A stretch of DNA of 64,000 nt from Centroscyllium fabricii (Eukaryota). The first letter of the stretch is position 1. Each line of letters begins with the position of its first letter. The notes beneath the pieces are model-generated. The model ran no database searches. It was not told where the DNA came from and saw only the letters and a list, made by a program, of their open reading frames with translations. The stretch spans positions 3,906,001 to 3,970,000 of the forward strand of contig JBNRSN020000013.1 in the NCBI GenBank assembly GCA_051313645.2. The letters run 5' to 3'. Positions 4,770 through 62,550 of this stretch are shown in pieces. A program made the position numbers and the translations under genes.

Positions 4770-5700
4770 GGGGAAAAATTGGGTTGTGTTCCGTTTGGGG
4801 CACTAACCTAGTAGCGCCCTGAAAAAATTAGCGCCGGTCCGCCGGAAATTGTGTTTTAGCGCCCCAAGTAGGAGGTGGGGCGCTACTCCAAGCGCCCCAC
4901 CTCGTTCTTTGGGCATTACCACTCAAGTTCGGGCGACTGCTTTCCGCAGCGCCACACTCTGCAGAGGGCCGCGCTGTGGTAACCGTTGTATGTACTATAA
5001 TTACCACCATAATATTGTATCCAATATTATCTGTATGTATAGCGGTCGGGTGCATGATGCAACTGTCCTGTGTTGCGACACTGTCGTGGGGCCAGGTCAG
5101 CCACACCTCTAACTCCTCCCCTCAGGTGAGTGCCTTATCGGTGGGGACTGACCGGCCCCCATTCATTCTGTACCTGATGTTCGATCGGAGCGTAGCTCCA
5201 TTGTAAGCTAATAAAAGCCTTGAGTTAAGGTAACTACTCGTCTTTAGTTTTATTAGATTATTGACGATACGTCACGCGCCACGGTAGTGCAGGCTTCACT
5301 CACCTGATTAAAGGAGAGTGGCCTAGCGCGGCGCGGCCCGGAGCCCCGTTGGACCGCCAGGGATCTGAATGCCACCAAAGGAGCCTGGCACTCGAGGGAA
5401 GTGCCGGGCTGATGGAGCACAGCCAGCACTCCGCGGTGGGGGGGGTGCATCGGGGAAGTGCCGGGCTGATGGAGCACAGCCAGCACTCCGCGGGGGGGGG
5501 GGGGGCATCGGGGAGGCCGGGAATTGGAGAGGGTGCAGGTGATGGCAGTCGGCCAACAAGAAAAATGGCCGCCCGGCAACCCCCCCTGTCGGTGACAGCG
5601 TCCGGCGGTATGGCAGCAGGCATGACTGAAGTTCGCGGCCGGGGCGCTGCGCATGGCGATGAAGTCATCGGCGGCGACGTCCATGATTCTAGAAATTCAA
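4770..5700. mobile_element. GC-rich non-autonomous DNA-transposon-like fragment hosting a solo LTR; contains a tandem duplication of about 55 bp (5395-5510)
   Basis: Abrupt GC-rich block in AT-rich flanks with a duplicated GGGAAGTGCCGGGCTGATGGAGCACAGCCAGCACTCCGCGG. Ends not resolved. Confidence 0.4.
4975..5274 (+). mobile_element. Solo LTR, family of Gypsy element A
   Basis: TGTGGTAACC...GATACGTCA, 300 bp, 5-bp TSD CGCGC, highly similar to 23530-23828. Confidence 0.95.
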
Positions 5701-5806: not shown

Positions 5807-6095
5807 TGACGTATCATCAATAATATAAAGACGCGTAGTTACCTTAACTAAAGGCTTTTATTAGCTTTACAAAGGAGCTACGCTCCGGTCGAACAGGTAC
5901 AGAATGGATGGGGACAGGTCAGACCCCACCTATAAGGCACTCACCTGAGGGGAGGAGTTAGAGGTGTGGCTGACCTGACCCCGCGACAGTGTCGCAATAC
6001 AAAGCTGTGTATAGTGCACCCAGCCGCTATACATGCTGGTTGATATTGTGCATCAATATTACAGTGGTAATAAACATCATATAACGGTTACCACA
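5807..6095 (-). mobile_element. Solo LTR, variant of the A/C family
   Basis: Reverse-complement LTR of 289 bp with 5-bp TSD CTGAG. Confidence 0.93.
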
Positions 6096-9760: not shown

Positions 9761-10226
9761 TCAATGGCACAGCTTGTATTTTTGAAAAGCACTGGGACGG
9801 CTGGCCAGAGCCTCTGCTAACTCCTTTCTGACTTCATTCACCAGCATATGGTCCATGCTGTCGGGACCCAGGACCATGCACATTGAAGTAAGGGAAAATA
9901 AAATGCACTGATTCAGTCCATTTTTCAGCCCTTCCTGCCTTTCAACAAATAATCAATATTTAAAAGAAGTTCCAAATGTCAATATTTAGCACTTAAAGCT
10001 GAATTACCTTTCTGAACTCAACAAATGGGAAAACTGCCTCAGCACCACCACAAATGGCTCAACAAGCCAGGGAAGGGGACACCCAGGGTCTCGCATGCAG
10101 AATTCCAGTTTTGTGCAGGGGATCAACACTGCAAGACTGGCCCCCTACCCACAGGGGCCAGGAGGCCCTCCAGAAAGAACGACGTGAGAGTACTGTGGTA
10201 ACCGTTGTATATACTATTATTACCAC

Positions 10227-13200
10227 TGTAGCGCCGGCAGGCCTAGGAACCACACGTGAGCCAGAGCTAGAGAGAACACAGCTTTAATCAACTAGTACAA
10301 AACAAGAAAAAGAGTGAACCACTCGAGACAGGCATATTTAAACGGTCCCGCGGTTGGTGACGTCATCGCATCGGCCGACGTGGTGACGTCGTCGCGTCAG
10401 CCGGATGAGCGGAGCTTTGCTCCGCGGAGTCCCCGTGGCAGATTCGATGCCCCAGTGGGCGTGTCGCCACATAGCTCCCCCCAGAATCCGTCCGGGAGGA
10501 ATAGTGACAGTATCTATGTATGCCGTTGGGGTGGCCGGATGATGCGGCCGGACCGTGTTGCTTGTAGCCTCTGGTTCTGCGGTGGAGTGTGGGCGGGTTT
10601 TGTTGCGGGAGGGCGACTGCGTTGAGGTGGTTGTGCGGGGACCGTAGTCTCGCCCGCTATCACGTGTGCCGGCTTGAGCCGGTCTATTGTTACAGTGTCA
10701 GTCCTGTTACCCATTTGTATTTCGAAAGCTTTCGCTCCCGCCCGAAGCACTCTGCAGGGGCCATCGTAAGGTGGCTGTAGTGGAGATCGGTGTCCGTCGC
10801 GCCGGACGAACACAAATTTAGCATTTTTAATGTTGTCCGGCACCCGAGCTGCTGGCTCTCCGTGCCGGGCCACTGGTAGTGGCTGGAAAGCTCGTGCCGG
10901 GTTAGCAAAATCTTTTAAATACTGGTCGGCTGACCAGGGAGCGTTGGGCTCAGCTAGGAACTCGCCCGGCACTGCTAAAGTTTGGCCGTAGACGAGCTCC
11001 GCTGCCGAGGCGTTGAGGTCTTCTTTGACTGCCGAGCGCAGCCCGAGGAGGACCCATGGAAGGCGGTCGGTCCACGATGCGTCTTTTAGCGTGGCCCGTA
11101 GTGATGCCTTCATAGAGCGGTGGAACCGTTCGCATAGGCCGTTCGCCTGTGGGTGATATGCGGTGGTTCGGTGTAGCGTTACCCCGAGGTCGCGGGTGAT
11201 GGCCGCCCATAATGCCGACGTAAACTGGGGTCCTCTGTCGGAGGTGATGTCTGTGGGCACGCCGAATCGGGCGACCCAGGTGGCGATGAACGCCCTGGCC
11301 AAATCTGTGGTGCCGGTGGCGGTGAGGGGGACTGCTTCTGGCCAGCGAGTGCTGCGGTCGACCATGGTCATTAGGTGCGTGTGGCCCCGGGATGGCGGTA
11401 GTGGCCCGACGAGATCGATGTGGACATGGTCAAAACGCCTGGCCGGTACTTTAAAATTTTCCAGCGGTGCCCTGATGTGCTTATGCACTTTGGAGCGCTG
11501 GCAGGCTATGCAGGAGCTGGCCCAGGCGCGGACATCCTTGCGCAGGCCGCGCCATACGAATCGGGCCGATATTAACTTAATGGACGCGCGGGCGCCGGGG
11601 TGGGATAGGTCGTGGAGGGTCCTAAAAATATGTTGCCTCCAAGCGTGGGGCACGACGGGCCTGGGTTGCGGTAAGGATACGTCGCAGCAGACGACGGTGG
11701 CAGCGGGGCCGTGCGCGATATTGGCCAAGTGGAGGCCAGGAAGATTGGTTGCTGCGTTGAGTAGGTTAGGGTCGGCCAGCTGGTCCGCGGCCAGCTGGGC
11801 GTAATCGACCGCCATTTGGGCGGCGTTAATGGTGGGGCGTGAGAGGCATTCAGCGACCACGTTGTCGCGGCCGGAAATATGCTGGATGTTGGTTGTAAAT
11901 TCCGACACGGCCGTGAGTTGGCGCTGCTGCCTGGCCGACCAGGGTTCAGCGACCTTAGCCATCGCAAATGTGAGTGGCTTATGGTCGCTGAAGGCTGTAA
12001 AGTGGCGGCCCTCCAAGAGGAAACGAAAATGTCGCATCGCCAGATGGAGAGCAAGCAGCTCCCTATCAAAGGTGCTGTATTTAACCTCTGGGGGCCGGAG
12101 TTGCCGGCTGAAAAAGGCCAAGGGCTGCCACGAGTTGCTGGTCCACTGCTCAAATACGGCCCCGACCGCGTGGTCGGAGGCGTCGGTGGTGAGGGCAACT
12201 CTGGCGTTGGGCCTAGGGTGGGCTAGGAGGGTGGCATTTGCCAGGGCGGTTTTAGTTGCGGTAAAGGCGGTGGCGGCTTCGGCCGTCCACTCGACCGCAG
12301 CCTTATTGGACTGCCCGCGGGTGGCCTGGTATAAGGGGGCCATGAGAGCGGCTGCTCCTGGGATAAAGCGGTTATAAAAATTAACCATCCCCAGAAATTC
12401 CTGCAGCCCTTTAATGGAGTGCGGGCGGGGGAATTCTTGTACCACCTGCACCTTAGAGGGCAGGGGTATGGCCCCTGTTTGGGAAATGCGGTGGCCGAGG
12501 AAGTCAATGGTCTCGAGGCCGAATTTACATTTAGTGGGGCTTAAGATAAGGCCGTGTTCAGTAAGGCGTTGGAACAGGGTCCTGAGGTGCAGGTGGTGTT
12601 CCTGGGGGGAGGTGCTGGCCACGAGGATGTCGTCTAAGTAGACGAAGATGAACTTCAAGTCCCGTAGGACCGAGTCCATGAGGCACTGGAAGGCCTGGGC
12701 CGCGTTTTTAAGGCCGAAGGGCATCCTAAGAAACTCGAAGAGTCCGAAGGGGGTAATTACGGCCGTTTTAGGAATGTCCGCCGGGTGTACCGGAACCTGG
12801 TGGTAGCCACGCACCAGGTCGATATTAGAAAAGATCGTACAACCCGCTAGTCTGGCGGAAAAATCCTGGATGTGGGGTACGGGGTACCTATCCGGGGTGG
12901 TGGCATTGTTAAGGTGGCGGTAGTCGCCGCAGGGGCGCCAGCCTCCGTCGGGCTTGGGGGCTATGTGGAGCGGAGAGGACCAGGGGCTGCTGGAGCGGCG
13001 GATTATACCGAGTTGCTCCATAGTGCGGAACTCGGTGTGCGCGATCTCCTGCTTGGCCGGGTCGAGCCTGCGGGCGTGGGCATGGACAGGAGGGCCTGTG
13101 GTAGTAATGAAATGTTCCACCCCGTGTTTGGCCTTGCGGGCGGTGAACGTGGGGTTGGTTAGGGCGGGGAACTCTGCCAGGAGCGTGCCGTAGGCATCGG

Positions 13201-14068
13201 AGTCCCTGGAGCGGCAATGGGCTGCCGTGTGGGCCAGGAGTGCGGGCCCTGTGGAGCATGGGATAGTCGTCATGGTGTTTATATTCACCAAGCGGCGCCG
13301 AGTTACATCGACCAGTAGGCCGTAGGTGCAGAGGAAGTCTGCCCCGAGGAGGGGAGAAGTGACCTGGGCCGTTACAAAATCCCAGGTGTACGCGTGGCTT
13401 GCAAGGGTTATGGTTAGCTTGCGGGTGCCGTACGTATTTATATTAGAGCCGTTGGCTGCCGCTAGTGGCGGGCCCCGGGTACCTCGTTTGGTTTCTGCCT
13501 GCGCTGGGCACGCGCTGTATTTTTGACCACATCCGATCAATCGTCGTCTGTGGTAGGGCTGTGAACACCAAGTCATAGTGGTCGTCCCCGTGGATGCCAT
13601 GTGTGCGGCAGCTGGCCTCGATGCAGACGAACCAGGCCGCTGGCCGTTGCTCCCAGAACTTGGGTAGAGTCAATCCACGTCCGGCGTTCTGTCCAGCTCC
13701 CTGCGTTCGTGGAGCTTGGTTTCTTGTGTTTACCATGTTCTCTGATAAAAGTCTTTGGCTGGTGGTCCCAGATCCCGCGGCAGCTTTTCTTCTCTGGAAG
13801 TCGTTCCAGTTCGGGGTCACCACTGTAGCGCCGGCAGGCCTAGGAACCACACGTGAGCCAGAGCTAGAGAGAACACAGCTTTAATCAACTAGTACAAAAC
13901 AAGAAAAAGAGTGAACCACTCGAGACAGGCATATTTAAACGGTCCCGCGGTTGGTGACGTCATCGCGTCGGCCGACGTGGTGACGTCGTCGCGTCACCCG
14001 GATGAGCGGAGCTTTGCTCCGCGGAGTCCCCGTGGCCGATTCGATGCCCCAGTGGGCGTGTCGCCACA
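10227..14068 (-). mobile_element. Gypsy element B (CsRn1-like) inserted in the 5' LTR of A; LTRs 13824-14068 and 10227-10471
   Basis: 4-bp TSD CCAC; 245-bp LTRs with 3 differences; PBS TGGTGACCCCGA complementary to the tRNA-Trp 3' end; PPT GGGGGGAG. Gag is mostly deleted. Confidence 0.93.
10514..13540 (-). CDS. pol: Pol of element B (truncated protease, RT, RNase H, integrase)
   Basis: Open frame with [29 protein letters not shown] and D-D-E integrase (IDLVGP, TSDRG, LCERFH). The protease DTG motif is lost at the gag deletion junction. Confidence 0.92.
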
Positions 14069-14363
14069 CCACCCTAATATTGTCACCAATATTATATGTA
14101 TGTATAGCGGTCGGGTGCATGATGCAACTGTCCTGTATTGCGACACTGTCGCGGGGCCAGGTCAGCCACACCTCTAACTCCTCCCCTCAGGTGAGTGCCT
14201 TATAGTTGGGGACTGACCGGCCCCCATTCATTCTGTACCTGATGTTCGATCGGAGCGTAGCTCCATTGTAAGCTAATAAAAGCCTTTAGTTAAGGTAACT
14301 ACGCGTCTTAGTTTTATTAGACTATTGACGATACGTCAATTTTATTAGCTTAGAAATTTTGAA

Positions 14364-15824
14364 ATGGAGAGCGGCGCTGTGAAACACAAAAAGCTGGACA
14401 TTAGTCCACAGGACCCAGCTGCCGCCAACACCTTCGAACACTGGTTCGGTCTCCTGGAGGCCTACATGGACGCCGCCAAGGCTACAACCGAGGGGAACAA
14501 ACTACAGGTTCTCCGATCCAGGATCTCCAGCCGGGTATTCTCCTTCATCCGTGACGCCAAAACGTACCCCGATGCGGTGGCTAAACTGAAGAAATGCTAC
14601 GAGCGCCCGGTCCACTCAGTCTACGCCAGACATGTGCTCGCGACCAGACCACAACTACCGAGTGAGTCAAACGAACAGTTCGAGCAGGCGCTCCAAGCCC
14701 TGGTCCGGGTCTGTGGCTGCCAACCACGGACGGCAGAAGAGGAGGCGAACCTCCTCGTCCGGGACGCCTATGTAACGGGACTCAGGTCCGCAGAGGCCCG
14801 TCAGCGGCTGCTGGAAAAAGACACTCTAACTCAGGAGGACGCGATCTCTATCGCCAACGCCGTGGAGGGCGCACGCCGCAAGCTGCAGGCGTACGGCGGC
14901 CCAAACCCACAGGCCTACGACGCGTGGGCAGTCCCACAACGGGTCGAGACCCCTACTATGGCAGCGGCAGCTGCGAAGATGCCGGTGGAGAAGAAATGCT
15001 ATTTCTGCGGCCAGGGACTACAGCCACGGGCGAGATGCCCAGCGAAGACTGCGACCTGCGAAAGGTGCTCAAAGAAAGGACACTACGCCAAGGCCTGCAG
15101 ATCAGCCCCGGCGTCCAGCTCCAGGTACAACAGCGCGGCCTGCGAAAGTTCCAACACCGGCCCTTGGCCTCAGGTATGCTGCAACTGCAGTGCGACCCAG
15201 CGACGGTCCGGGGTTAGAGTACAAGCGCCCCCGTCTCCCACCCTGAGGCGGCAGAGGCCGGTTGCACCCACGGCACGCCAAACTCAGCCATGGCCGGCCA
15301 TGCGCGATCCCCCAACTCCGGCATCCCGCCCAGCGCGGCTCGCTGCGTGCGAATCACGGGCACCGCCAACCCAGCCACCGCGGTCCGCTGCATGTGAACC
15401 ACGGGCACCGCCATCGCGTCTACAGTGGCCCACCGCGTGCGAACCACGGGCACCACCATCTTGTCTGCAGCGGCCCGCCATGTGCGGCCCCCCGGCGCCG
15501 CCATCTTGTCTTCAGCGACCAGCCATGTGCGACTCTCCGGCGCCGCCATTTTGTCCCCAGAGGCCGGCCATGTGTGAACCACGGGCGCCGCCATCTTGTG
15601 TACGGCCCCGACCAGTGGAGGGCTCCCACACACACACACACACTTCGGCCTCAGCCATCCCGAAAGTCGATCAGCCTAGGCCGCACACTCTATCAAATTC
15701 CATGATGGGGATTAAAGTCAACGGCCATGCCACGAACTGCCTGTTCGACACCGGAAACACAGAAAGCTTCATTCACCCCGATACAGCGCAGCGCTACGGA
15801 CTGCAGATCCTGCCCACGCGCTAA
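14364..15824 (+). CDS. gag: Gag and start of protease of element A; premature TAA where C has TAC
   Basis: Zinc knuckle CERCSKKGHYAKAC (first knuckle degenerate), Pro-rich repeats and LFDTG protease motif. Confidence 0.88.
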   Translation: MESGAVKHKKLDISPQDPAAANTFEHWFGLLEAYMDAAKATTEGNKLQVLRSRISSRVFSFIRDAKTYPDAVAKLKKCYERPVHSVYARHVLATRPQLPSESNEQFEQALQALVRVCGCQPRTAEEEANLLVRDAYVTGLRSAEARQRLLEKDTLTQEDAISIANAVEGARRKLQAYGGPNPQAYDAWAVPQRVETPTMAAAAAKMPVEKKCYFCGQGLQPRARCPAKTATCERCSKKGHYAKACRSAPASSSRYNSAACESSNTGPWPQVCCNCSATQRRSGVRVQAPPSPTLRRQRPVAPTARQTQPWPAMRDPPTPASRPARLAACESRAPPTQPPRSAACEPRAPPSRLQWPTACEPRAPPSCLQRPAMCGPPAPPSCLQRPAMCDSPAPPFCPQRPAMCEPRAPPSCVRPRPVEGSHTHTHTSASAIPKVDQPRPHTLSNSMMGIKVNGHATNCLFDTGNTESFIHPDTAQRYGLQILPTR

Positions 15825-16828
15825 CAGGTCTCCCTTGCTTCACAGTCCCACACCGCGGACGTCACCGGCTACTGCTCCGTCACGCTCACAGTTAAGGGCT
15901 GCGTGTACCGTAATTTTAAATTGTACATTCTGAAACAGTTGTGCCCCCCAGTCTTACTGGGACTGGATTTCCAGTGCCACCTTAAGAGCTTGACAATGGA
16001 GTTCGGCGGGACCCTGCCCCCCTTCACCGTCAGTAGCAGGGACAATCTCTTCCCAAAGCTGAGCCCGGCCTGCGGCCTCTCCACCCTGAAAGTCGACCCA
16101 CCCTCACTGTTCGCCAACCTCGACCCCAACTGCAAGCACATTGCTACTAAGAGTCGGCGGTACAGTGCAGGGGATCGGACGCTTATCAGGTCGGTGGTTG
16201 GGCGTATGCTAAAGGAGGGGATAATTGAAGCCAGCACCAGCCCCTGGCGGGCCCAAGTTGTAGAGGTTAAGACTGGCGAGAAACATCGGATGGTTATCGA
16301 TTACAGCCAGACCATTAACCGCTACACCGGGCTCGATGCCTACCCCCTCCCCCGCATCTCGGAAATGGTTAACCAGATCGCCCAATACAAGGTGTTCTCC
16401 ACAATCGACCTTAAGTTGGCGTATCACCAACTCCCGATCCGGAAAGCCGACCGCCCGTACACCGCCTTCGAGGCGAACGGTCGGCTCTACCACTTCCTCC
16501 GGGTCCCCTTCGGCGTGACCAACGGAGTGTCGGTGTTCCAAAGGGAGATGGACCACATGGTTGATCAGAACGGGTTGCAGGCCACCTTCCCCTACCTGGA
16601 CAACGTGACCATCTGCGGCCATGACCAGCAGGACCACGATGCCAATCTGGCCAAATTCCTCGACACAGCGAAACGGCTAGATCTCACATACAACAAAGAC
16701 AAGTGTGTCTTTAGTACAGATCGGCTCGCCATCCTCGGATACGTGGTGGAAAACGGGGATTTCGGCCCCGACCCACAGCGTATGCGCCACTTACAGGAAC
16801 TGCCCCTTCCTCACAACCCCTATGCCCT
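15825..16828 (+). pseudogene. pol: Element A pol, RT part (interrupted by element C)
   Basis: MVIDYS, VPFGVTNG and YLDN motifs; the frame resumes at 21680. Confidence 0.9.
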
Positions 16829-19800
16829 TGTGGTAACCATAATTGTCTATAGTTTACCACTACAATATTGGTGCCAATATTGCCATGTATAATAGTTAAA
16901 CATGTTGCGACACTGTCGTGGAGCCAGGTCAGCCACACCTCTAACTCCTCCCCCAGGTGAGGCCCTTTATAGGTGAGGACTGACCGGGCTCACTCATTCT
17001 GTTCCTGTTTGTTCGTTCGGAGTGTAGCTCCAAAGTAAGTCAATAAAAGCCTGTAGTTAAGGTCACTACTCGTCTTTGACTTTATTGAGTAAATTGACGA
17101 TACGTCAATTTTATTGACTTAAAAAATTTGAAATGGAGAGCGGTGCGGTAAAACCGGAGAAGCTGGACATCAGTCCACAGGACCCAGCCACCGACACTAC
17201 CTACGAACACTGGTTCGGTCTCCTGGAGGCCTACATGGATGCCCCCAAGTATACAACCGACGGGAACAAGCTACAGGTTCTCCGGTCTAGGATCTCCAGC
17301 CGAGTATTCTCCCTCATTCGGGACGCCAAAACCTACCCAGTGGCAGTGGAGAAACTGCGAAAATGTTACGAGCGCCCCGTCCACTCGGTCTACGCCAGAC
17401 ATGTGCTAGCGACCAGACCACAACTACCGGGTGAGTCGAATGAGCAATTTGAGCAGGCACTCCAGGCCCTGGTACGGGTCTGTGGCTGCCAACCACGGAC
17501 AGCAGAGGAGGAGGCGAATCTCCTCGTCCGTGATGCCTACGTAACAGGCCTAAGGTGCGTTGAGGTCCGCCAGCGGCTGCTAGAGAAAGACTCTTTAACC
17601 CTAGAGGAGGCGATCGCCATCTCGAACTCGGTGGAAGGGGCACGCAACAAGCTGCAGGCATACAGCGGCACAAACCCGCAGGTCTACGACGCGTGGGCCG
17701 CGCCACAACGGGCCCAGGCCTGGGCAGCACCACAACGGGCCGAGACCCCCACGATGGCCGCAACAGCCGCAAAGACGCAGGCGGACAGACGGTGCTACTT
17801 CTGCGGCCAGGGACTGCATCCACGGGCGAGATGCCCAGTGAAGACCGCGACCTGCGAGAGGTGCTCCAAGAAGGGACACTATGCAAAGGCCTGCAGATCA
17901 GCCCCGGCGCCCAACTCCAGGTACAACAGTGCAGCCTGCGAAAGCTCCGCCAGGACTCAGGTAAGCTGCAATTGCAGCGCGATCCAGCGACGGTCCGGCG
18001 GTAGAAGAAAAACGCCCCCATCTCCCACCCTGATGCGGCAAAGGCCGGCTGCACCCACGGCACGCCAAGCTCAGCCACGGCCGGCCAAGCGCGGCCCCCC
18101 AACGCCAGCAGCACACCCAGCGCGGCCCGCTGCGTGCGAAGCACGGGCACCGCCAACCCAACCACCGCGGCTCGCTGCGTGCGAACCACGGGCACCGCCA
18201 ACCCAGCCACCACGGCTCGCCGCGTGCGAACCACGGGCGCCGCCAGCACGCTCACAGCGGTCAGCCGCGTGCGAACCACGGGCGTCGCCATCTTGTCTCC
18301 AGCGGCCCGCCATGTGCGACCCCCCAGCGCCGCCATCTTGTCTCCAGCGGCCCGCCATGTGCGAACCACGGGCGCCGCCATCTTGTGTACAGCCCCAACC
18401 AGCAGGGGGCCCCCACACACAAACGCACACTTCGGCCTCAGCCATACCAAAAGTCGACCAGGCTAGGCTGCACACCCTATCGAACTCGATCATGCCGATC
18501 AAAATTAACGGCCATACTACTAATTGCCTGTTCGACACTGGAAGCACAGAGAGCTTCATCCACCCCGATACAGCGCAGCGCTACGGACTGCAGATCCTGC
18601 CCACGCGCTACCAAGTCTCCCTTGCTTCACAGTCCCACACCGCGGACATCACCGGCTACTGCTCCGTCACGCTTACAGTCAAGGGTTGCATGTACCATAA
18701 CTTTAAGTTGTACACCCTCAAGCAGTTGTGCGCCCCAGCCTTACTAGGTCTAGATTTCCAGTGCCACCTCAAGAGCGTGACAATGGAGTTCGGCGGGACC
18801 CTGCCCCCCCTCACCGTCAGTAGCCGGGACAGTCCCTTCCCAAAGCGGAGCCCGGCCTGCGGCCTCTCCACCCTGAAAATCGACCCCCCTCACTGTTCGC
18901 CAATCTCGACCCCAACTGCAAGCCTATTGCTACTAAGAGTCGGCGGTATAGTGTGGGTGATCGGACATTTATCAGGTCGGAGGTCGGGCGTATGCTGAAG
19001 GAGGGGATAATTGAAGCCAGCACCAGCCCCTGGCGGGCCCAGGTTGTAGTGGTGAAGACTGGCGAGAAACAGCGGCTGGTTATCGATTACAGCCAGACTA
19101 TTAACCGCTACACCGGGCTCGACGCCTCCCCCCTCCCCCGCATCTCGGACATGGTCAACCAGATCGCCCAATATAAGGTGTTCTCCACGATCGACCTTAA
19201 GTCGGCGTATCACCAACTCCCGATCCGGAAAGCCGACAGCCCATACACCGCCTTCGAGGCGAACGGTCGGCTCTACCACTTGCTCCGGGTCCCCTTTGGC
19301 GTGACCAATGGAGTGTCAGTGTTCCAACGGGAGATGGACCGCATGGTTGACCAGAATGGGTTGCGGGCCACCTTCCCTTACCTGGACAACGTGACCATCT
19401 GCGGCCACGACCAGCAGGACCACGATGCCAATCTGGCCAAATTCCTTGACACGGCGGAACGGCTGGACCTTGCGTATAACGAGGACAAATGTGTCTTTAA
19501 TACAGATCGGCTCGCCATCCTCGGATACGTGGTGGAGAATGGGGTCCTCAGTCCCGACCCACAGCGTATGCGCCCCTTACAGGAACTGCCCCTTCCTCGA
19601 ACTGCCCCTTCCTCACAACCCCAAAGCCTTGAGGAGATGCCTAGGATTTTTCTCCTACTACGCACAATGGGTCTCACAGTTCGCGGACAAGGCTAGATCA
19701 CTTCTCAAGGCTGCCGTCTTCCCCCTCTCGGTAGAAGCCCAAACGGCATTCGCCCGGATAAAGGAAGACATCATCAAGGCGACCATGCACGCCGTTGATG

Positions 19801-21674
19801 AATCCATCCCTTTCCAGGTGGAGAGTGACGCTTCAGACTTTGCCCTCGCCGCCACCCTGAACCAGGCAGGCAGGCCCATAGCGTTTTTCTCCCGCACCTT
19901 ACAGGGACCCGAAATTCGCCACTCTGCAGTGGAAAAGGAGGCCCAGGCCATCGTGGAGGCCGTGCGCTACTGGCGTCATTACCTGGCCGGTAAGCGTTTT
20001 ACCCTACTCACCAACCAGCGGTCGGTGGCGTTTATGTTTAACAATGAACAAAAGGGTAAGATCAAGAATGATAAGATCCTGCGGTGGCGGATCGAGCTCT
20101 CGACTTACGAGTACGACATTCTTTACCGACCAGGTAAACTCAATGAACCCCCGGACGCACTGTCCAGGGGAACGTGCGCCAGTGCCCAGCTAGACCGGCT
20201 GAAGGATCTCCACGATCGCCTCTGCCACCCGGGTGTCACCAGACTTGCCCACTTCATCAAATCCCGTAGCCTCCCCTACTCCATCACGGAGATCAAGGCT
20301 ATGACCCGAGAGTGCCCTGTTTTCGCCGAGTGCAAACCCCAATTTTTCCGGCCATACACGGCGCACCTCATTAAGGCCACCTGCCCCTTTGAACGTCTCA
20401 GCGTGGACTTCAAAGGCCCCCCCCCTCCACCGACCGCAACTCGTACTTCCTCACGGTCGTAGATGAGTTCTCCCGCTTCCCCTTCGCCTTCCCCTGCCCA
20501 GATATGACGAGCGCAACGGTGATCAAACACTTCACCACACTGTTCGTCATTTTCGGTCTCCCCAGCTACATTCATAGTGACCGGGGGTCATCGTTTATGA
20601 GCGATGAACTGCGTCAGTTTCTGCTCCAGAAAGGGGTTGCCTCGAGCAGAACGACCAGCTACAACCCCCGGGGGAACGGCCAGGTAGAAAGGGAGAATGG
20701 GATTATTTGGATGGCGGTCACCCTGGCTCTGAAGTCCAGAGGCCTTCCAGTGTCCCATTGACAGGCAGTCCTCCCAGACGCGCTGCACTCGATACGTTCT
20801 CTGTTATGTACGGCCACCAACGCCACCCCTCATGATTTAATGTTTTCCTTTCCCAGGAAGTCGACTTCGGGGACAGCTCTTCCTCCATGGCTCACGACAC
20901 CGGGGCCGGTCTTCCTTAGAAAACACGTCCGCGGCCACAAGAGTGACCCCCTGGTGGACAAGGTGCAGCTCCTGCACGCCAACCCACAGTACGCGTACGT
21001 GCAGTTCCCGGACAGGCGCGAGGACACCATCTCCATCAGGGACCTAGCGCCCGCCGGGAGCACCACAGCAGAGCCACTGGCCGGGCAGCAGCCCGCCCAG
21101 TCACGATGTTTCGAACACTCCCTGCACCTAGAGTGGCCACCAAGGTACCCAGAGCCCCAGCCGTGGCCAGCACAAGACCACCATTCGGATGGCTCGGATC
21201 AACCGATACCACCAGCATCTGAAGTTTCGGCACCAGCGCCGCTGTCACCCCCACCGGACCCGAGCGGGACGGACCATACAGAACTTCTGCCAGAGCCCCG
21301 GCGGTCCTCCAGACAGACGCGACCGCCGGACAAATTGATATTGAACTGCTCTGTCCATTCACCCCGCCGGACTTAAATTTTCAAGAAGGGGTGAATATGG
21401 TAACCATAATTGTCTATAGTTTACCACTACAATATTGGTGCCAATATTGCCATGTATAATAGTTAAACATGTTGCGACACTGTCGTGGAGCCAGGTCAGC
21501 CACACCTCTAACTCCTCCCCCAGGTGAGGCCCTTTATAGGTGAGGACTGACCGGGCTCACTCATTCTGTTCCTGTTTGTTCGTTCAGAGTGTAGCTCCAA
21601 AGTAAGTCAATAAAAGCCTGTAGTTATGGTCACTACTCGTCTTTGACTTTATTGAGTAAATTGACGATACGTCA
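16829..21674 (+). mobile_element. Gypsy element C (sister family of A) inserted in A pol; LTRs 16829-17107 and 21396-21674
   Basis: 5-bp TSD GCCCT; 279-bp LTRs with about 3 differences; same PPT as A. Confidence 0.95.
17133..21376 (+). pseudogene. gag-pol: Disrupted gag-pol of element C
   Basis: Two CCHC knuckles, LFDTGS, YLDN RT, SDASD RNase H and integrase. Frameshifts near 18890, 19600 (16-bp duplication GAACTGCCCCTTCCTC) and 20420; stop at 20759. Confidence 0.9.
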
Positions 21675-21679
21675 GCCCT

Positions 21680-23510
21680 GAAGAGATGTCTGGGATTTTT
21701 CTCTTATTACGCGCAATGGGTTCGCCAGTTCGCGGATAAGGCCGGACCGCTCCTCAAGGCTGCCGTCTTCCCCCTCTCGGTAGAAGCCCACACGGCGTTC
21801 GCCCGGATCAAGGAAGATATTATCAAGGCGACCATGCACGCCGTTGATGAATCCATCCCTTTCCAAGTGGAGAGTGACGCTTCGGACTTTGCCCTTGCCG
21901 CCACCCTGAATCAGGCAGGCAGGCCCGTAGCGTTTTTCTCCCGCACCTTACAGGGACCCGAAATTCGCCACTCTGCAGTGGAAAAGGAGGCCCAGGCCAT
22001 CGTGGAGGCCGTGCGCTACTGGCGTCATTACCTGGCCGGTAAGCGTTTTACCTTGCTCACCGACCAACGGTCGGTCGCGTTTATGTTTAACAATAAACAA
22101 AAGGGTAAAATCAAGAATGATAAGATCCTGCGGTGGCGGATCGAGCTCTCGACTTACGAGTACGACATTCTTTACTGACCATGCAAACTCAATGAACCCC
22201 CGGACGCACTGTCCAGGGGAACGTGCGCCAGTGCCCAGCTTGACCGGCTGAAGGAACTCCACGATCGCCTCTGCCACCCGGGTGTCACCAGACTTGCCCA
22301 CTTCGTAAAATCCCGTAGCCTCCCCTACTCCATCACGGAGATCAAGGCTATGACCCGAGAGTGCCCTGTTTGCGCCGAGTGCAAACCCCAATTTTTCAGG
22401 CCAGACACGGCGCATCTAATTAAGGCCACCCGCCCCTTTGAACGTCTAAGCGTGGACTTCAAAGGCCCCCTCCCCACCACCGACTGCAACTCGTACTTCC
22501 TCACGGTCGTAGACGAGTTCTCCCGCTTCCCCTTCGCCTTCCCCTGCCCAGATATGACGAGCGCAACGGTGATCAAACACTTCACCACGCTGTTCGCCAT
22601 TTTCGGTCTCCCCAGCTACATCCATAGCGACCGGGGGGCGTCGTTCATGAGTGACGAACTGCGCCAGTTTCTGCTCCAGAAAGGGGTTGCCTCGAGCAGA
22701 ACGACCAGTTACAACCCCCGGGGGATCGGCCAGGTAGAAAGGGAGAATGTGATCATCTGGAAGGCGGTCACCCTGGCCCTGAAGTCCAGAGGCCTTCCAG
22801 TGTCCTGTTGGCAGGCAGTCCTCCCTGATGCGCTGCACTCGATACGCTCTCTGTTGTGTACGGCCACCAACGCCACACCTCACGATTTAATTTTTTCATT
22901 CCCCAGGAAGTCGACTTCGGGGACAGCCCTTCCACTGTGGCTCACGATGCCGGGGCTGGTCTTGCTTAGGAAGCACGTCCGCGGCCATAAGACCGACCCC
23001 CTGGTAGACAAGGTGCAGCTGCTGCACGCCAATCCGCAGTACGCGTACGTACAGTTCCCGGACGGGCACGAGGACACCGTCTCCATCAAGGACCTAGCGC
23101 CCGCCGGGAGCACCACAGCAGAGCCCCTGGTCGGGCAGCAGCCCGCCCAGCCACTATATTTTGGCCACCTCCAGCCACTACATATCGACCACTGGCCGAT
23201 ACACGACCCACAACCCACCGGAGGCTGGCCGCCACTACCGCATGGTTCGGAGCCCCCGCCATGGCCAGCTGAGGACCAAGACTCGGATGACCAGCTGCAG
23301 GCACAGCAGCAACCGCAGGGCTCAGACCCACCGCCACCACCAGCACCTACAGTACCGGCACCAGCGCCGCCGTCACCACCACCGGCTCCAGCGCCGCCGA
23401 TGCTGCAGGAACCGGAACATTCGACAGAGACCCGGCGGTCCTCCAGACAGACGCGACCGCCGGATAAGCTAATCATGAACTGCTCTGTCCATTCACACCG
23501 CCGGACTTGA
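21680..23510 (+). pseudogene. pol: Element A pol, RNase H and integrase part; internal stop at 22176
   Basis: VESDASD, EKEAQA, CPVCAECK, SVDFKGP and HSDRG motifs; CGA-to-TGA relative to C. Confidence 0.9.
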
Positions 23511-24974
23511 TTTTCAAAGAAGGGGTGAATATGGTAACCGTTGTATATACTATTATTACCACCCTAATATTGTCACCAATATTATATGTATGTATAGCGG
23601 TCGGGTGCATGATGCAACTGTCCTGTATTGCGACACTGTCGTGGGGCCAGGTCAGCCACACCTCTAACTCCTCCCCTCAGGTGAGTGCCTTATAGGTGGG
23701 GACTGACCGGCCCCCATTCATTCTGTACCTGATGTTCGATCGGAGCGTAGCTCCATTGTAAGCTAATAAAAGCCTTTAGTTAAGGTAACTACGCGTCTTA
23801 GTTTTATTAGACTATTGACGATACGTCAAGTACATCACTGAGGCCGTGCTAATAGTGTTAGACCACTGGTCAAATTATTGTTTGCTGGTATTACCTTCAG
23901 TAACCTATAGTTTAGTTTATGGCTTATATCAGTATTATGCAGGTTTATGAATTCAGACAGTTCTGCAGGGCTAGGGATGAGAGTCATGTGTCAGTGTATT
24001 GGCTTTGATGGTATTGTCATTATTTTACATTCTACCGGTCAATCTCACAGGATGTGAAGATCAAGTGTAGTCTTCAGGTGAAGTGCGGTCAGAGGGCGAA
24101 CGATAATTTGACCTGGGTATGCAGATGTAATTCGAGTCCCCCATTTTATATTCATACTTATTTTGATTTTATATTATTGCTCATACCCCTGTAGTGAAAT
24201 AGCAAAAGCTAGGGCAATACAGGCTGAGGAGCTGAACAGAGGTGCTACTGCACCACCACTGGTGGGAGGATGTAATTACACCGTAACACATTAAGCAGTT
24301 TTCATTCTAAATGAGGACATAGGAACTTATAATGGGAATGTTGGCAGAAATGTGGCAACAGGTAGTAAGTTAGACTCTCTGTGAGCCTTCAAGAGAGCAC
24401 TGGACCAGTTACTGATTGGGGAAAAATGATCACATCTTATAAAAGGTAGGTTTTGTAGATCAAAAGTGGACATTGTTATAAGATTTTTAATACATTGTAG
24501 GTATATTTATTCATACTTGTGGTTTAATTGCACGGATATTTGATATATGGTAATCTTTATTTATGTTTGTTATGTTCTGTATTCTACAGCAGAGAGTTCC
24601 AACCCATGATCCACATTCCAAATGATGCCCCTCAGCCTTGCCACTTCAGCCTTTCCTATCCAGGTAACTTAGTCCATTTGTGTTTATATCTCTTTCTGGC
24701 AGGTTTGAATTTCTCATGGCTGGAGGTTTGGAAGGTCTATTTTTAGCACCGTTACATAATTGGAGGATAAATTCTGAATCAGAACACCGAGATCTGTCAG
24801 TATCAGCAACCTGTGATATCTGCAAATCAACGGGAACACACATTTGAACTTTGTGGGTGGTAATCTGGTGTGGCAGATCGCCATCCTATATAGAACCTGT
24901 CTTTTATTCCTTTATAGATCCCGCCTGATTTTTATTCCATAATAGGCCTAGGCGGTGAAGAGGAAAATCTATGA

Positions 24975-26951: not shown

Positions 26952-27392
26952 ACCTCTATATGTGGTTGTGAGTCCCTCTACAGGAGGGTGGTGATTACTC
27001 TTTGTACTATTCTTGGTGACGTGGTTACCACATTGTGTGTGACCGAAATAACGACCTCGTGGACGAGTAGTTAGGAAGAGAAACAATGCGGCTTTTATTA
27101 ACTAAATGGTGGGACATGCACCAGCTAGTCGACTGTCCCCAGGTATGGCCGGGGGATGGGAGACGGCCACTTATGTACCCTCTCCAGGGAGGGAGGAGTC
27201 ATGGGCGGAGCCAACCTGGGTATGTCCCGGTAATCGTATAACAGGTTTATGTACAACATGGTATTAGGTACGATTACATCGATACAGGCAGAGTAAGTAT
27301 ATAAAACAAGAACAGTGAGAAACAGTGGTTTATCACATTCACCCCTTCTTTAAAACAAAAGTCCGGCGGGGTGAAAGGAACAGTTCTTTTAT

Positions 27393-30300
27393 TTATAAAT
27401 TAAGTCGCTCCGGCGGTCTGGTGACCCTTGTCGAGCGTCGTACCGCTGGTGGTGTCTGCGGTCGCGGAGTGGCCGGCCGAGTCGGTTGTAGCGATGGTGC
27501 TGATGCCGGTTGGCGAGCGGTGATCGTCGGTTGGTTTCTGGGTGGTGGTGCCCTTATTCTGACAGTAGGAGGCGCGCTCTCTCCCTCGTCGTCTGACTCT
27601 AGAGGGCGTGCGCTGTGGAGCCATGCTGGGGGCCATGCCGTGCTGCTCGCAGGTGCCGGGTGGGCGTACTGGGGTACTGGGTCCACGTGCCGGGGAGCGT
27701 ACCTTGGCGCCGGTGGCTGGGATGGCGTGACTGGGCGTCTTGGGTGCGCTGGCTGCTGGGCGGGGCTTCTTGGGTGCGCGGGCTGCTGGGCGGGGCTTCT
27801 TGGGTGCGCGGGCTGCTGGGCGGGGCTGGGTTTGGGGACTCCCGCTGGTGCCAGGTCCTTGATGGACACTGTGTCCTCCCTCCCGTTGGGGTACGCCACG
27901 TAGGCGTACTGGGGATTGGCGTGCAGGTGGACCCGTTCGACCAGTGGATCTGCCTTGTGGCCCCTCACATGCTTCCGTAGTAGGACCGGTCCCGGGGATA
28001 GCAGCCATGATGGTAGCGAAGTCCCGGAAGCCGACTTCCTGGGGAAGGCAAAAAGTCGTTCGTGAGGGGTGGCATTAGTGGCAGTACACAGGAGGGACCG
28101 GATAGAGTGGAACGCTTCAGGGAGGACGTCCTGCCATCGGGAGACTGGGAGGTTTTTAGACCGTAGGGCTAACAGGATGGCCTTCCAGACAGTGGCGTTC
28201 TCCCTCTCTACCTGCCCGTTCCCCCGCGGTTGTAGCTGGTAGTTCTGATAGTCGCGATGCCTTTGGCTAGCAGAAACTGATGCAGCTCGTCACTCATAAA
28301 GGATGCTCCCCGGTCACTATGAATATAGTTGGGATAGCCGAACAGGGAGAAGATGCTGTGGAGGGCTTTGATGACCGTGGCGGAGGTCATGTCCGGGCAG
28401 GGGATGGCAAAGGGGAAGCGGGAGTACTCATCGATCACATTAAGGAAGTACACATTCCTGTTGGAGGAGGGAAGGGGCCCTTTGAAATCGACGCTGAGTC
28501 GTTCAAAGGGGCGAGTGGCTTTAATCAAGTGCGCCCGGTCTGGCCAGTAGAAGTGCGGCTTGCACTCCGCGCAGACCTGGCAGTTGCTGGTCAGGGTCTT
28601 GACCTCTTCGATAGAGTAGAGGAGGTTGCGGGACTTCACGAAGTGAACCAACCTGGTGACCCCCGGGTGGCAGAGGTCATTGTGAAGGGTTTGGAGGTGG
28701 TCTGTCTGTGCGCTGGCACAGGTACCGCGGGATAGGGCGTCTGGGGGTTCGTTAAATTTCCCGGGCCGGTACAAGATATCATAATTAAACGCGGAGAGTT
28801 CAATTCTCCACCTCAATATCTTGTCGTTCTTGATTTTACCCCGCTCTTTGTTGTTGAACATAAAGGCGACTGAGCGTTTGTCAGTCAACAGGGTAAAACG
28901 CTTGCCGGCCAGGTAGTGCTTCCAGTGACGCACTGCTTCAACGATGGCCTGGGCCTCCTTCTCGACTGAGGAGTGACGGGTCTCGGGGCCCTGGAGGGTA
29001 CGTGAGAAGAAGGCCACTGGTCTGCCCGCCTGGTTAAGGGTGGCGGCCAGGGCAAAGTCCGATGCATCGCTCTCTACTTGAAATGGGACGGACTCGTCTA
29101 CAGCGTGCATCGTGGCTTTTGCGATGTCATTCTTAATGCCGCAGAACGCCGAGCTGGCTTCTGCGGACAGGGGAAAAGAGGTAGATTTAAGCAGTGGGCG
29201 AGCTTTGTCCGCGTAATTGGGGACCCACTGGGCGTAATATGCAAAGAACCCCAAGCACCGTTTAAGGGCCTTGGGGGAGTGGGGGAGGGGGAGCTCCATG
29301 AGGGTGCGCATGCGGTCCGGGTCGGGACCGATGACCCCATTCTCCACAACACTGCCGAGGATGGCCAGGCGGGTGGTACTGAACACGCACTTTTCGGTGT
29401 TATAGGTCAAATTAAGTGTTTTGGCGGTGTGGAGAAATTTCTGGAGGTTGGCGTCGTGGTCCTGCTGATCGTGGCCGCAGATGGTCACGTTATCGAGGTA
29501 CGGGAAAGTGGCTCGCAGCCCGTACCGATCGACCATTCGGTCCATCTCCCTTTGGAAGACCGAGACCCCATTCGTGACGCCAAACGGGACCCTAAGGAAG
29601 TGGTAGAGGCGACCGTCAGCCTCGAAGGCTGTATAGAGACGGTCCTCTGGGCGGATGGGGAGCTGGTGATAAGCGGACTTGAGATCGATGGTGGAGAACA
29701 CCCTGAACTGTGCGATCTGGTTCACCATGCACGCTATCCGGGGAAGGGGGTAGGCATTTAACTGGGTGAACCAATTTATGGTCTGACTGTAGTCAACGAC
29801 CATCCGGTTCTTCGCTCCGGTTTTGACCACCACTACCTGCGCCCTCCAGGGGCTATTACTGGCCTCGATAACCCCCTCCTTCAGGAAGCGCTGCACCTCG
29901 GACTTAATAAGGTCGCGCCTACTCTTGGTGGCGACGGGCTTGCAGTCTGGGGTGAGGTTGGCAAAGAGCGAGGGAGGGGCGACCTTAAGGGTCGAGAGGC
30001 CACAGGTAGCGCGCCGGGGGTGCTGCGCTGAGCGCCGGTTGCTGACCGTGAGCGAGGGAAGGGGCCCACCGTACGCCATGGTAACACTCTGGAGGTGGCA
30101 CTGGAAGTCCAGGCCCAATAGTAATGGAGCGCAGAGCTGCGGCAGCACAAAAAAACTAAAATTATCAAAGTGCGCGCCCTGTACAGTTAGGGCCACTGCG
30201 CAACGCCCGGAGACGTCCGCAGATTCCGATTTAGAAGCCATCGAAATTCTTTGGCTCGCAGGTATAACCTTAAGGGAGAGGCGCTCTACTGTTTCGGGAT

Positions 30301-31390
30301 GAATAAAACTCACCGTGCTCCCACTGTCGAAGAGACACACCACTTCTTGTCCGTTCACTTCCACAGGCATCGTCGATTTCCCCAGTGATTGGGTCTTGTT
30401 CTGGTCAAGAGTTACTGATGCTAAGATTGGGTCAGCCGATTCCTCTTGATCCGCAGAGTAGTCCTCCGGGGCCGGTCCCCAAGATGGCTGCCGCCATGTG
30501 GTGTACTGCGGAGGGGGTGGCTGGGTCCAATATGGCGACTGCTGCCATGCGGGGAACTGAGTGGGGGATGGTTGAGTCCAATATGGCTGCTCCCATGTTC
30601 CACATGCGGCGCTGCCCGGTTTCGGTTTTGGGGTTGATGTGGACGCCTTACAGACTTTGGCGTAATATCCTTTTTTTCCACATTTCGAGCAGGCCGCTTC
30701 TCTTGCTGGGCAGTTACGTCTCGAATGCTGAGACTGCCCGCAGAAGCAGCATTTAGCCGTCTTCGCGTGAGCGGCTGCGATCATCTCTTCCGCCGGCCGT
30801 TGCGCCGGCGTTGTCCAAGATGGCGGGGCTAGGCCCGTATAGTTGCCGGAATACGATGAGAGATTTAGCGAGGCCACGTCCAGCGCGTGTCCCAGATCCG
30901 CAGTTGCCTGCAGCTCAAGGCCGTTCTGCTCTAACAGCCTCTGTCTTATATAGTCCGACCTGAGGCCTGTCACATATGCGTCTCTAATGAGACTGTCCGC
31001 ATGGATCGGGGCCGTTAGCGCTCTGCAGTCACAGGCCCGTGAAAGCACTCTCAGCGCTCTTAAAAATTCCACGCTGGACTCACCGGGTTGCTGCTTCCTG
31101 GTGGCTAGGAGATGTCTGGCGTGGACGATATTGGGTGCCCGGTTGTACTCCGCCTTGAGAATCCTGATAGCATCCAAGTATGATGATGCTTCCACTATCA
31201 TGGAGGACACCTGAGGGCCCACCCGGGCATTGAGGAGCCGTCGTTTGTCCTCTTCGGTCACGACGACCGCTGCGTTCGCTCTCAGGTACGTATCGAAAAC
31301 ACTGTACCAGTGTGTAAAAGTGTTTGATGCGCCTGGTGTCCGGGGGTCCAGTTCAAACGTCGCTGGCTTGAGCATGGTATCCATCTTCAA
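27393..31390 (-). CDS. gag-pol: Gag-Pol polyprotein of element D (1060-aa open frame; frameshift in integrase near 28225)
   Basis: CCFCGQSQHSRRNC, LFDSGS, YLDN, SDASD, HHCC, SVDFKGP and HSDRG motifs; the integrase C-terminus continues to 27393. Confidence 0.92.
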
Positions 31391-31452
31391 AATTTAGTTA
31401 ATAAAATTGTGACCGAAATAACGACCTCGTGGACGAGTAGTTAGGAAGAGAA

Positions 31453-31959
31453 ACATAAGAACATAAGAAATAGGAGCAGGAGTAGGCCAATCGGCCCCTC
31501 GAGCCTGCTCCGCCATTCAACAAGATCATGGCTGATCTGATCCTAACCTCAATTTTATTTTAACTCTCCACCCCACCCAAACCCATGTGATCACCTGGGA
31601 GAGGCGAAAAACCAGATAAAAAAAACCAGTAGCCAATTTTGGAGAAAAAATCTGGGAAATTCCTCTCCGACCCATCTAGGCGATCGAAAACTGGTCCAGG
31701 AGATCACATGGCCGATCTGAACCTATCCTCACGTCCACTTACCTGCCCGCTCACCATAACCCCTAATTCCCTTTACTTCCAGGAAACTGTCTATCTCTGT
31801 TTTAAAAATTTTCAAAGTAGTAGCTTCCACAGCTCTCTGGGGCAGCAAATTCCACAGCCCCACCACCCTCTGGGTGAAGAAATTCCTCCTCATCTCTGTC
31901 CTAAATGAGTCACCCCTTATCCTTAGACTATGGCCCCTGGTTCTGGACTCTCCTACCAT
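31453..31959 (-). mobile_element. CR1 3' end inserted in the 5' LTR of D
   Basis: SRTRGHSLRIRG...FFTQRVVGLWN, (TTCTTATG)n tail and long structured 3'UTR; no TSD. Confidence 0.9.
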
Positions 31960-33194
31960 CGGCTTTTATTAACTAAATGGTGGGACATACACCAGCTAGT
32001 CGACTGTCCCCAGGTGTGGCCGGGGGATGGGAGACGGCCACTTATGTACCCTCTCCAGGGAGGGAGGAGTCGTGGGCAGAGCCAACCTGGGTATGTCCCG
32101 GTAATCGTATAACAGGTTTATGGACAACATGGTATTAGGTACGATTACATCGATACAGGCAGAGTAGGTATATACAACAAGAACAGTGAGAAACAGTGGT
32201 TTATCACATTGTGTGAAACTGTTGTATGTGCTATTTTAATAAAGTCATTAATTTGTGTGAAGCAAGTTGTTAAAAGCAGGCTCAGAGTAATTTCTACTCC
32301 CAGTCCCAGGTATTCTAATCCAATTCCATATGGATTCCAAGTTATAAGTGCTCCCCCCTCAGCTCAAATGCTTTTAAGTAAAAGTCTTTGCCTGTTGTGC
32401 ACTGTTAACTGTGGAACTATAGATGTCTGTTAGTGCTTTAAATAATATTATTACATCACATTTGATGCTAAGAGTAACAGTTTTCTGAGACTTATACTGA
32501 GTTCACCTTGAGGAACTGTATGTGCTGGTCTCTTCATTTGGTCATGGGGATTTTCATTCCTCTTTGGGTTCTCATTCGTAATTCTGATTTGATTTTTATT
32601 AAGAAAATTCCCTATCAGTGACTAATTTAAATCTTTTCAGGTGTCTGTTATTTGCTTCGGAGATTATGAGAGTCCTGTCTGTGGTGAATTGATCATTTTA
32701 GTAATATATGTGGGTCTGTGTCAGCTGTTCAAATACATTATTCTTCAAGAGTACTTGTGTTAGTAGATAATTTTATTTATGATTAGATGTCCTGTCTATT
32801 CCTCAAATCATTAAGGTTCTTGAACATTGAGGTGAAGTGTCGTAGGTTTATTAAGCATGTCGTACATGCAATAGTACTTAAACATACGCTTAAAAGATCG
32901 TATTTACAACTGCATCTGGTTTCATTGGGGATTCAAACACGTTCTGAGCTCAGTATCTTCAGCCTTTACAAATCCAAGTACTCACTACAAAGTGCCACTT
33001 TTTATACATTTCTCTCACCCCCTAAATGTGACAATCCACCGTTTCTACATTACATGATTATATAAAAGTTAAAATACAACTCCATATAAGGAGACTTTAA
33101 TTGAATTTGTCCTTTATCAATAACTTCAGTCAATAAACTAATTTTCTTGCTTAACAATTTCCTTTTCTGTTGAGTTAACAACATCTGTTGTTGG

Positions 33195-61558: not shown

Positions 61559-61599
61559 TCTTGGGTTCTCGGTAGATTTGTCTGCAATTTGTAATCTCA

Positions 61600-61870
61600 C
61601 TAGAGCAGGGGTATAAGGACAGAAGAAAAGACCATTTGATGCATTGACTTTAGCTCCAGAAAACCAGCTCCCCCAGCCTAGCAACTGTATGGTGAACTCC
61701 TCCAATATCCTGAATTCATCCCCTTACCTCTGGATCATTCCAAATGGTGATCACTGAGTTAGAAATGCACTTTTCATTCATTTTAATGAGGTCTCTTTTT
61801 CTTCACGTGGCATGACAGGACTCAGTGTAATATGTAGGGTTCACCTTCTCTGTGCCAATGATTGGCTTTC
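61600..61870 (-). promoter_or_regulatory. Predicted 5'UTR intron (61727-61600) and upstream promoter motifs of the MROH1-like gene
   Basis: Donor GAG|GTAAGG; acceptor CTTTTCTTCTGTCCTTATACCCCTGCTCTAG|; E-box CACGTG near 61804; palindromic GCCAATGATTGGC near 61854-61866. Confidence 0.55.
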
Positions 61871-62074: not shown

Positions 62075-62550
62075 AGGTGTGAGATTGAAGATGGTCAGTG
62101 ATGGGGAATGTGGTGTGTCTGAGAGTACGGGAGCGGTGTGTGAGATTGGAGATGGTCAGTGATGGGGAATGTGGTTTGTCTGAGAGTATGGGTGTGGTAA
62201 CCCATATTGTATATACGATTACCACTGTAATATTGTCGCCAACATTGGCTTTGTATGATACACCGCTTTGCAAAACTGTCGTGGAGCCAGGTCAGCCACA
62301 CCTCTAACTCCTCCTCCAGGTGAGGCCTTTATAGGTGAGGACTGACCGGGGCTCCCTCATTCTGTTCTGATGTTCGTTCGGAGGGTAGCTCCAAAGTAAG
62401 TTAATAAAAGCCTATAGTTAAGGTCACTACTCGTGTAGTCTTTTATTAAGACAATTGACGATACGTCAATGGGAGTGGTGTGTGAGATTGGAGATGGTGA
62501 GTGATGGGGAATGTGGTTTGTCTGAGAGTACGGGAGTGGTGTGCGATTGC
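62075..62550. repeat. Tandem repeat of about 60 bp, interrupted by a solo LTR
   Basis: Repeated GTGTGAGATTGGAGATGGTCAGTGATGGGGAATGTGGT.TGTCTGAGAGTA.GGGAG. Confidence 0.85.
62193..62468 (+). mobile_element. Solo LTR, C-like family
   Basis: TGTGGTAACC...GATACGTCA, 276 bp, TSD ATGGG. Confidence 0.95.

Follow-up and report, generated by a model that had tools for sequence, protein, structure and literature searches.

Elements of the window and their primer-binding sites

How do Gypsy retrotransposons begin minus-strand DNA when no tRNA-type primer-binding site (PBS) follows their 5' LTR? The question was raised by three elements, A, C, and D, in the window, that is, the whole 64,000-nucleotide stretch of Centroscyllium fabricii DNA that was analysed. 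All three are env-less Ty3/Gypsy elements with TG..CA LTR ends and 5-bp target duplications, and element C is nested within element A. The earlier note had proposed that each of them is primed by the poly(A)-signal segment of its own LTR, to which the PBS is complementary. The features are listed below in window coordinates.

10194..14338 (+): 5' LTR of element A, interrupted by element B (10227-14068; 4-bp duplication CCAC)
13805..13822 (-): PBS of element B, starting TGG; a contrast case from outside the clade
14200..14205 (+): TATA-like box of element A, with the conserved A of the duplex 71 nt downstream; putative function
14228..14233 (+): initiator-like motif of element A; start predicted near 14230 from the spacing
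14269..14281 (+): putative self-primer segment of element A, in the 5' LTR, including AATAAA
14282..14296 (+): predicted short hairpin of element A, immediately 3' of the putative cut, with an RCC...GGY pattern; its helix length does not exceed background in the control
14340..14352 (+): PBS position of element A, reverse complement of 14269-14281
14364..23510 (+): gag-pol region of element A, stop-broken, with element C inside at 16829-21674
16829..17107 (+): 5' LTR of element C; TATA-like 16966-16973, initiator-like 16994-16999
17036..17048 (+): putative self-primer segment of element C
17109..17121 (+): PBS position of element C
21396..21674 (+): 3' LTR of element C; GCCCT target duplication
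23519..23828 (+): polypurine tract and 3' LTR (23530-23828) of element A; AGTAC target duplication
27038..27337 (-): 3' LTR of element D; CACAA target duplication
28208..31384 (-): open gag-pol frame of element D, with protease, RT, RNase H, and integrase core
31392..31406 (-): PBS position of element D
31408..32208 (-): 5' LTR of element D, with an insertion at ~31454-31959; TATA-like 32041-32048
31964..31978 (-): putative self-primer segment of element D

The segments and PBS positions of A, C, and D are perfect reverse complements over 13, 13, and 15 nt, respectively. Each PBS begins one base (A) past the terminal CA of the LTR, and none begins with TGG. The paired swaps among the three elements (CT/AG, TC/GA, and TT/AA) are real, and the pairing has the right polarity for priming minus-strand DNA. 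The LTR ends were set without use of the pairing, by the 3' LTRs and the duplications AGTAC, GCCCT, and CACAA. With shuffled LTRs, 10 or more of the 11 positions paired in 0.2% of trials, and the best self-pairing of element B, whose PBS we take to be of the tRNA-Trp type, was only 9 of 11. A chance origin of the pairing in A, C, and D is excluded.

In the 5' LTR of element D, an insertion of about 500 nt, missing in most of the 30 D-family loci, separates the segment from the PBS, so that the pairing of D is undisturbed only in other copies. The open frame of D follows the Gypsy domain order (protease, RT, RNase H, integrase), and the frame gave no chromodomain hit. A 1335-aa frame in one open copy ends about 55 nt before the 3' LTR, which leaves no room for env. 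The 5-bp duplication was seen in 36 of the 41 family A copies for which a 3' LTR was found, among 61 examined.

Distribution of the pairing

The self-complementarity is kept in other copies. In the host genome (7.2 Gb), 9,733 junctions between 5' LTR and PBS belong to family A and carry the standard segment, and in a sister family (2,059 matches) a TT in the segment is matched by AA in the PBS in all 30 loci read. Among 150 host loci, which come from five Gag searches and are not independent, 136 paired at 10 or more of 11 positions (11/11 in 106 and 10-10.5 in 30). Most of the 14 loci with lower scores have an LTR interrupted by an insertion or deletion, as judged partly by eye.

Relatives were also recovered from metagenomes. 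From 80 such loci, 47 without a Gag start and two with the Gag start off the contig were set aside, and 26 of the 31 testable ones scored at least 10/11. One of these 26, L062, does so in another register. Of the others, L097 pairs at 14 of 16 positions, L070 carries the signature at the far end of its contig, and in L072 the signature appears divided between the contig ends; no signature was found in two of the 31 (L080 and L104). No relative was found in the viral contigs searched.

In a curated set of 26 elements, 24 scored at least 10/11, a level reached by 0.2% of shuffles and by 18% of pairings between families. For 16 rows of this set the LTR ends were read from an LTR pair, and for the other 10 they were placed by homology or motif, which is partly circular. 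The PBS starts with TTT or a one-base variant in 26 of 26 rows, never with TGG. G.U pairs are present in two loci, L115 and L130. A candidate G.U sub-lineage (9 of 10 copies) was dropped, as the search pattern itself picks one subtype.

Covariation and the 11-nt frame

The covariation test used one row per family (19 of 26 rows; 5000 permutations) and ignored the relatedness of the families, which lie far apart in RT. Counted from the putative 3' end of the primer, positions 4-9 and 12 pair in 17-19 of the 19 families versus 8-12 expected, a result matched by 0 of 5000 permutations. Seven duplex positions exchange letters on both sides across the 19 families, and position 12 covaries in three pair types. 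Farther out, position 13 gave a P of 0.018 and positions 14-16 a P of 0.05-0.07, with nothing at 17-18; in several families the pairing extends to 14-17 nt.

Positions 1-3 (AAA) and 10-11 (AG) are almost invariant. The AG that starts the 11-nt frame was found in 25 of 26 curated rows and 17 of 20 non-host families, and RCC directly after AAA in the LTR in 22 of 26 and 16 of 20, respectively; 12 of these 20 non-host families overlap the curated set. The kept unit is thus an 11-nt frame consisting of AG, a variable middle, and AAA, followed by RCC. Two further candidates were rejected. For a hairpin after the cut, the RCC...GGY letters recur, but a helix of at least 4 bp, present in 16 of 26 rows at that offset, is not enriched there against 11-19 of 26 elsewhere. 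An upstream TTACCT motif varies in distance and is missing in several families.

The clade-wide conservation and the two-sided change of letters support the idea of the earlier note well, and Tf1-like self-priming, whatever its geometry, is very probable on these sequence patterns.

Transcription start and proposed mechanism

The geometry depends on where the RNA begins. Of 14 host rows searched with a permissive pattern, 11 have a TATA-like box at 70-74 nt and two more at 82 and 90 nt upstream of the conserved A, while one has none; in 8 of the 14, an initiator-like hexamer is found at 40-45 nt upstream. Non-host families showed no promoter at a fixed distance. From the TATA/initiator spacing, the RNA is predicted to start about 40-45 nt before the duplex. 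The upstream start suggested earlier thus has promoter motifs behind it in this host, its position being a prediction from those motifs. Contigs from four runs of unrecorded type displayed neither transcript starts nor ends, which counts neither way. The pairing also favours an internal segment: it continues beyond AG into positions 12-13 and has faded by position 17, rather than stopping abruptly as at an RNA 5' end. The primer would then be internal, and this version of self-priming, with an internal 5' primer, is on balance the one we lean towards.

The strongest alternative is the plain Tf1 geometry, in which transcription starts at the conserved (T)AG, the first 11-13 nt are the primer, and the 5' poly(A) signal is silent beside the cap. 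The near-fixed AG exactly 11 nt before the putative cut (in the proportions given above) fits a Tf1-like start at that A and gives a primer equal in length to that of Tf1, whereas most host families carry the TATA-like and initiator-like motifs at canonical spacing 40-45 nt upstream and have no TATA 30 nt before AG. In several families AG lies within an initiator-like hexamer, and the LTR of L089 has only about 40 nt upstream of AG; however, the covariation at position 12 and the 14-17-nt pairing need RNA upstream of AG unless they arose in DNA. We consider this geometry unlikely as a replacement for the internal primer, though both may be present in the clade.

With an internal primer, the sequence of events would be as follows. 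The complementarity between the PBS and a 13-15-nt stretch of the element's own 5' LTR would allow the RNA to fold back on itself. Transcription would begin 40-45 nt before the duplex, some 30 nt past the TATA-like box, and the duplex would form in cis once the PBS is transcribed. By analogy with Tf1, the element's own RNase H would cut at AAA^RCC, which in this host would give a primer some 52-55 nt long: the leader, with the poly(A) signal at its end. RT would extend the new 3' end through U5 to the cut, starting at the LTR boundary, and the ~20 nt from the cut to the poly(A) site would serve for strand transfer. Families in which the paired stretch is the poly(A) signal would gain a side benefit: since a PBS follows the 5' LTR and not the 3' LTR, the duplex would mask the signal in the 5' copy alone.

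In its complete form, our reading is that a widespread animal Gypsy clade evolved self-priming apart from Tf1; that the primer is a capped leader, about 55 nt long and with the poly(A) signal at its end, made by an internal cut; that one duplex both primes RT and silences the 5' poly(A) site; and that the RT-RNase H reads the fixed AG...AAA^RCC frame. We hold this combination tentatively, with a probability of roughly 0.35.

The segment is present in both LTRs, and its 3' copy might instead be the primer if the RNA circularised, the tail after AAA were removed, and the 3' end of the genome primed, leaving the upstream 40 nt to strand transfer. The upstream start would then give a longer strand-transfer overlap than the 5' cut leaves. 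The 5' copy, however, lies 20-70 nt from the PBS and is predicted by folding to take it with a probability near 1, and a precedent for the 3' route was not found in the literature excerpts examined. We regard it as quite unlikely.

Overlap with the poly(A) signal and variant copies

The earlier note equated the primer with the poly(A) signal itself. The overlap behind this equation holds in the host, where AATAAA or ATTAAA lies inside the duplex in 14 of 14 rows, and fails as a rule, as only 10 of 20 non-host families have such a hexamer there; of the other 10, only two carry one farther down U5. The overlap is common yet dispensable and is not an invariant of the clade, and the AG...AAA-RCC frame is better kept. 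The hosts of the hexamer-less families may accept variant poly(A) signals.

The claim that the duplex hides the 5' poly(A) signal was carried by folding predictions, which make it feasible. When the RNA was folded from 45 nt upstream, 24 of 26 folds gave the duplex a probability of 0.88 or more. The predicted unpaired fraction of the seven bases at the 3' end of the primer was 1-29% with the PBS and 9-94% without it (26 folds), and in three of the 26 the hexamer region was also hidden without the PBS. Pairing hides AAUAAA at the RNA 5' end of HIV-1, a tRNA-primed virus; there it is a local hairpin, whereas here the hiding would come from the primer duplex. An internal primer with a hidden poly(A) signal is plausible in this host.

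Variant copies bear on whether the primer is copied into the PBS. Where a single LTR letter varied, the old PBS letter was kept in 69 of 70 cases examined (30/30 and 39/40). A 3' LTR was present in 41 of the 61 copies inspected, with the family letter in 36 of them; the single LTR variants are therefore post-insertion changes. Five double changes were found, three of them complementary, against about 1.4 and 0.45 expected (P ~0.01, a rough value). Of the complementary ones, one is in both LTRs, one is in the 5' LTR only, and one was unreadable, and another copy with a change in both LTRs is uncompensated in the PBS. L367 has a paired change in its 5' LTR and PBS that is absent from its 3' LTR, so some complementarity may arise in DNA after insertion.

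L367 fits a further explanation, in which the duplex is not a primer: it would serve only to hide the 5' poly(A) signal, or would be an inverted repeat that repair maintains in the DNA, and priming would be left to a host tRNA fragment or a different route. The hexamer within the duplex of all 14 host rows agrees with this, but half of the non-host families keep the duplex without a canonical hexamer. Host tRNAs matched the PBS over 4 nt or fewer in a comparison of only 11 sequences of two kinds (Cys and Lys, from 30 of 63 listed loci), which leaves room for a host primer; against it, no PBS starts with TGG, and the many different PBSs would each require a different host RNA. Moreover, the partner always lies one base past the LTR end, where priming must occur. 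This explanation seems slightly less probable even than the 3' LTR route.

Finally, that the fixed AG is a splice acceptor and the primer was shaped by splicing is highly improbable, for although U-rich tracts precede AG in many families, the unspliced sequence pairs straight across AG to positions 12-17 with no splice needed, and, as a weak point, no LTR joint ending at AG is listed in four contig sets of unrecorded type.

Clade and comparison with known systems

A quick 50-row RT-RNase H tree, which contains no named Mag or Cigr-1 reference, grouped all included self-pairing elements into a single clade of 35 rows on a long stem (SH-aLRT 100); element B and the chromodomain-bearing P0080, P0082, and P0083 fall outside it. 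Elements A, C, and D thus appear to belong to a large clade outside the chromoviruses. The hosts of named relatives are rays, a shark, corals, an anemone, Trichuris, Trichinella, a damselfly, and shrimps. Homologues have two CCHC knuckles, and Mag elements likewise have two.

The RT active-site motif reads YxDN, not YxDD, in 25 of the 35 clade rows (7 YLDD, 3 unread); in the window, the RT of element D is encoded in the frame 28208-31384 (-). Families with YxDN nonetheless have thousands of young copies, and a whole-word literature search found no paper on this motif.

The earlier note named Tf1 as the known case of self-priming. Tf1 does prime itself: bases 1-11 of its RNA anneal to the PBS, and the cut by RNase H falls after the eleventh (PMC7175516, in the excerpt consulted). 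The precedent is wider than Tf1 alone (PMC6317226, in part), as the available excerpts describe self-priming for Tf1, Tf2, Tj1, the Tf1/sushi group, and fungal chromoviruses and predict it for plant Tcn1 and TAR. According to excerpts of PMC7175516, PMC4600332, and PMC5341516, Tf1 and Tf2 of Schizosaccharomyces pombe, Tj1 of S. japonicus, and the Tf1/sushi chromoviruses resemble the present clade in being Ty3/Gypsy elements without a tRNA site, with a PBS complementary to an LTR stretch, the right polarity, and a core of about 11 nt. In contrast to the Tf1/sushi group, the clade described here has no chromodomain, forms a separate RT clade, and shows the poly(A) hexamer overlap (in this host), the fixed AG...AAA^RCC frame, and a mostly YxDN RT. 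Unlike in Tf1, the primer is probably internal rather than the first 11 nt.

The plant self-primers of Tcn1 (Gypsy) and TAR (Copia) were predicted by the same test, a PBS complementary to the 5' LTR; they belong to other lineages and hosts, and the excerpt of PMC6317226 mentions neither a poly(A) overlap nor an internal primer. The Mag lineage consists of compact 4.7-4.8 kb elements with short LTRs and a single gag-pol frame of 1330-1365 aa (PMC11117352, in part). The present clade matches Mag elements such as Cigr-1 and pufferfish Mag1/Mag2 in compact build, short LTRs, and frame length (1335 aa here), and likewise in its wide range of animal hosts, a likeness drawn from published descriptions. 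No PBS is given for Mag or Cigr-1 in the literature excerpts examined. In Dictyostelium Skipper, a pyrimidine-rich stretch replaces the PBS and unconventional priming was proposed; unlike the clade here, Skipper is a chromovirus whose LTR has no complementary region (PMC5006619, in part). Identity with Troyka was ruled out, as Troyka has CG..CG ends and a 3-bp target duplication according to the part of PMC12440569 seen, against TG..CA and 5 bp here.

Implications

The clade-wide signature of self-priming is real, and it points, as far as sequence can tell, to a known mechanism in an unexpected lineage. To our knowledge, bench proof of self-priming comes only from fission-yeast elements, with predictions for their kin and two plant lineages. 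The literature search found neither self-priming in a non-chromovirus animal Gypsy clade nor a primer overlapping the poly(A) signal; Repbase Reports, which lay outside the search, may already note such a case. If the reading is true, a second and very successful animal clade would make the abandonment of the tRNA primer a recurrent solution, and its elements would escape silencing by PBS-directed tRNA fragments. If the primer is internal, sequence or structure, rather than the distance to the cap, would determine the cut site. A dual-use duplex would also explain in a simple way how transcription from a short LTR gets past the first poly(A) signal. An annotation tool that demands a tRNA match will miss or mislabel the clade.

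Additional observations

A second, shorter complement of the AATAAA segment lies in the U5 of A, C, and a solo LTR (~14312-14320, 17080-17089, and 62444-62453), with family-specific letters; it could compete with the PBS or serve as a U-rich downstream element. In locus L142, a complement of the AATAAA segment directly follows that segment and replaces what is normally there, as if the template had been switched on the inverted repeat. The LTR of L089 is only about 80 nt long, and two PBS copies lie at one end of its contig. Near-identical family E copies (L146 and L157-L166) are spaced 40-90 kb apart on one contig, which suggests a large segmental tandem array.

Within the window, the 3' LTRs of A (23530-23531) and C (21396-21397) start with TA, whereas their 5' LTRs and the other copies start with TG; these are probably two post-insertion changes or the result of local conversion. 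Tandem repeats of 45 nt (15 codons) occupy the nucleocapsid-protease interval of A (15277-15651) and C (18064-18438). The A/C group is also represented by three solo LTRs, at 4975-5274, 5813-6095 (-), and 62193-62469, all of them with 5-bp target duplications. At 56624-61723 (-), a single uninterrupted, intronless frame of 1699 aa has Maestro/MROH2B-like HEAT repeats; genes of this kind are usually multi-exon, and the frame is perhaps a retrocopy.
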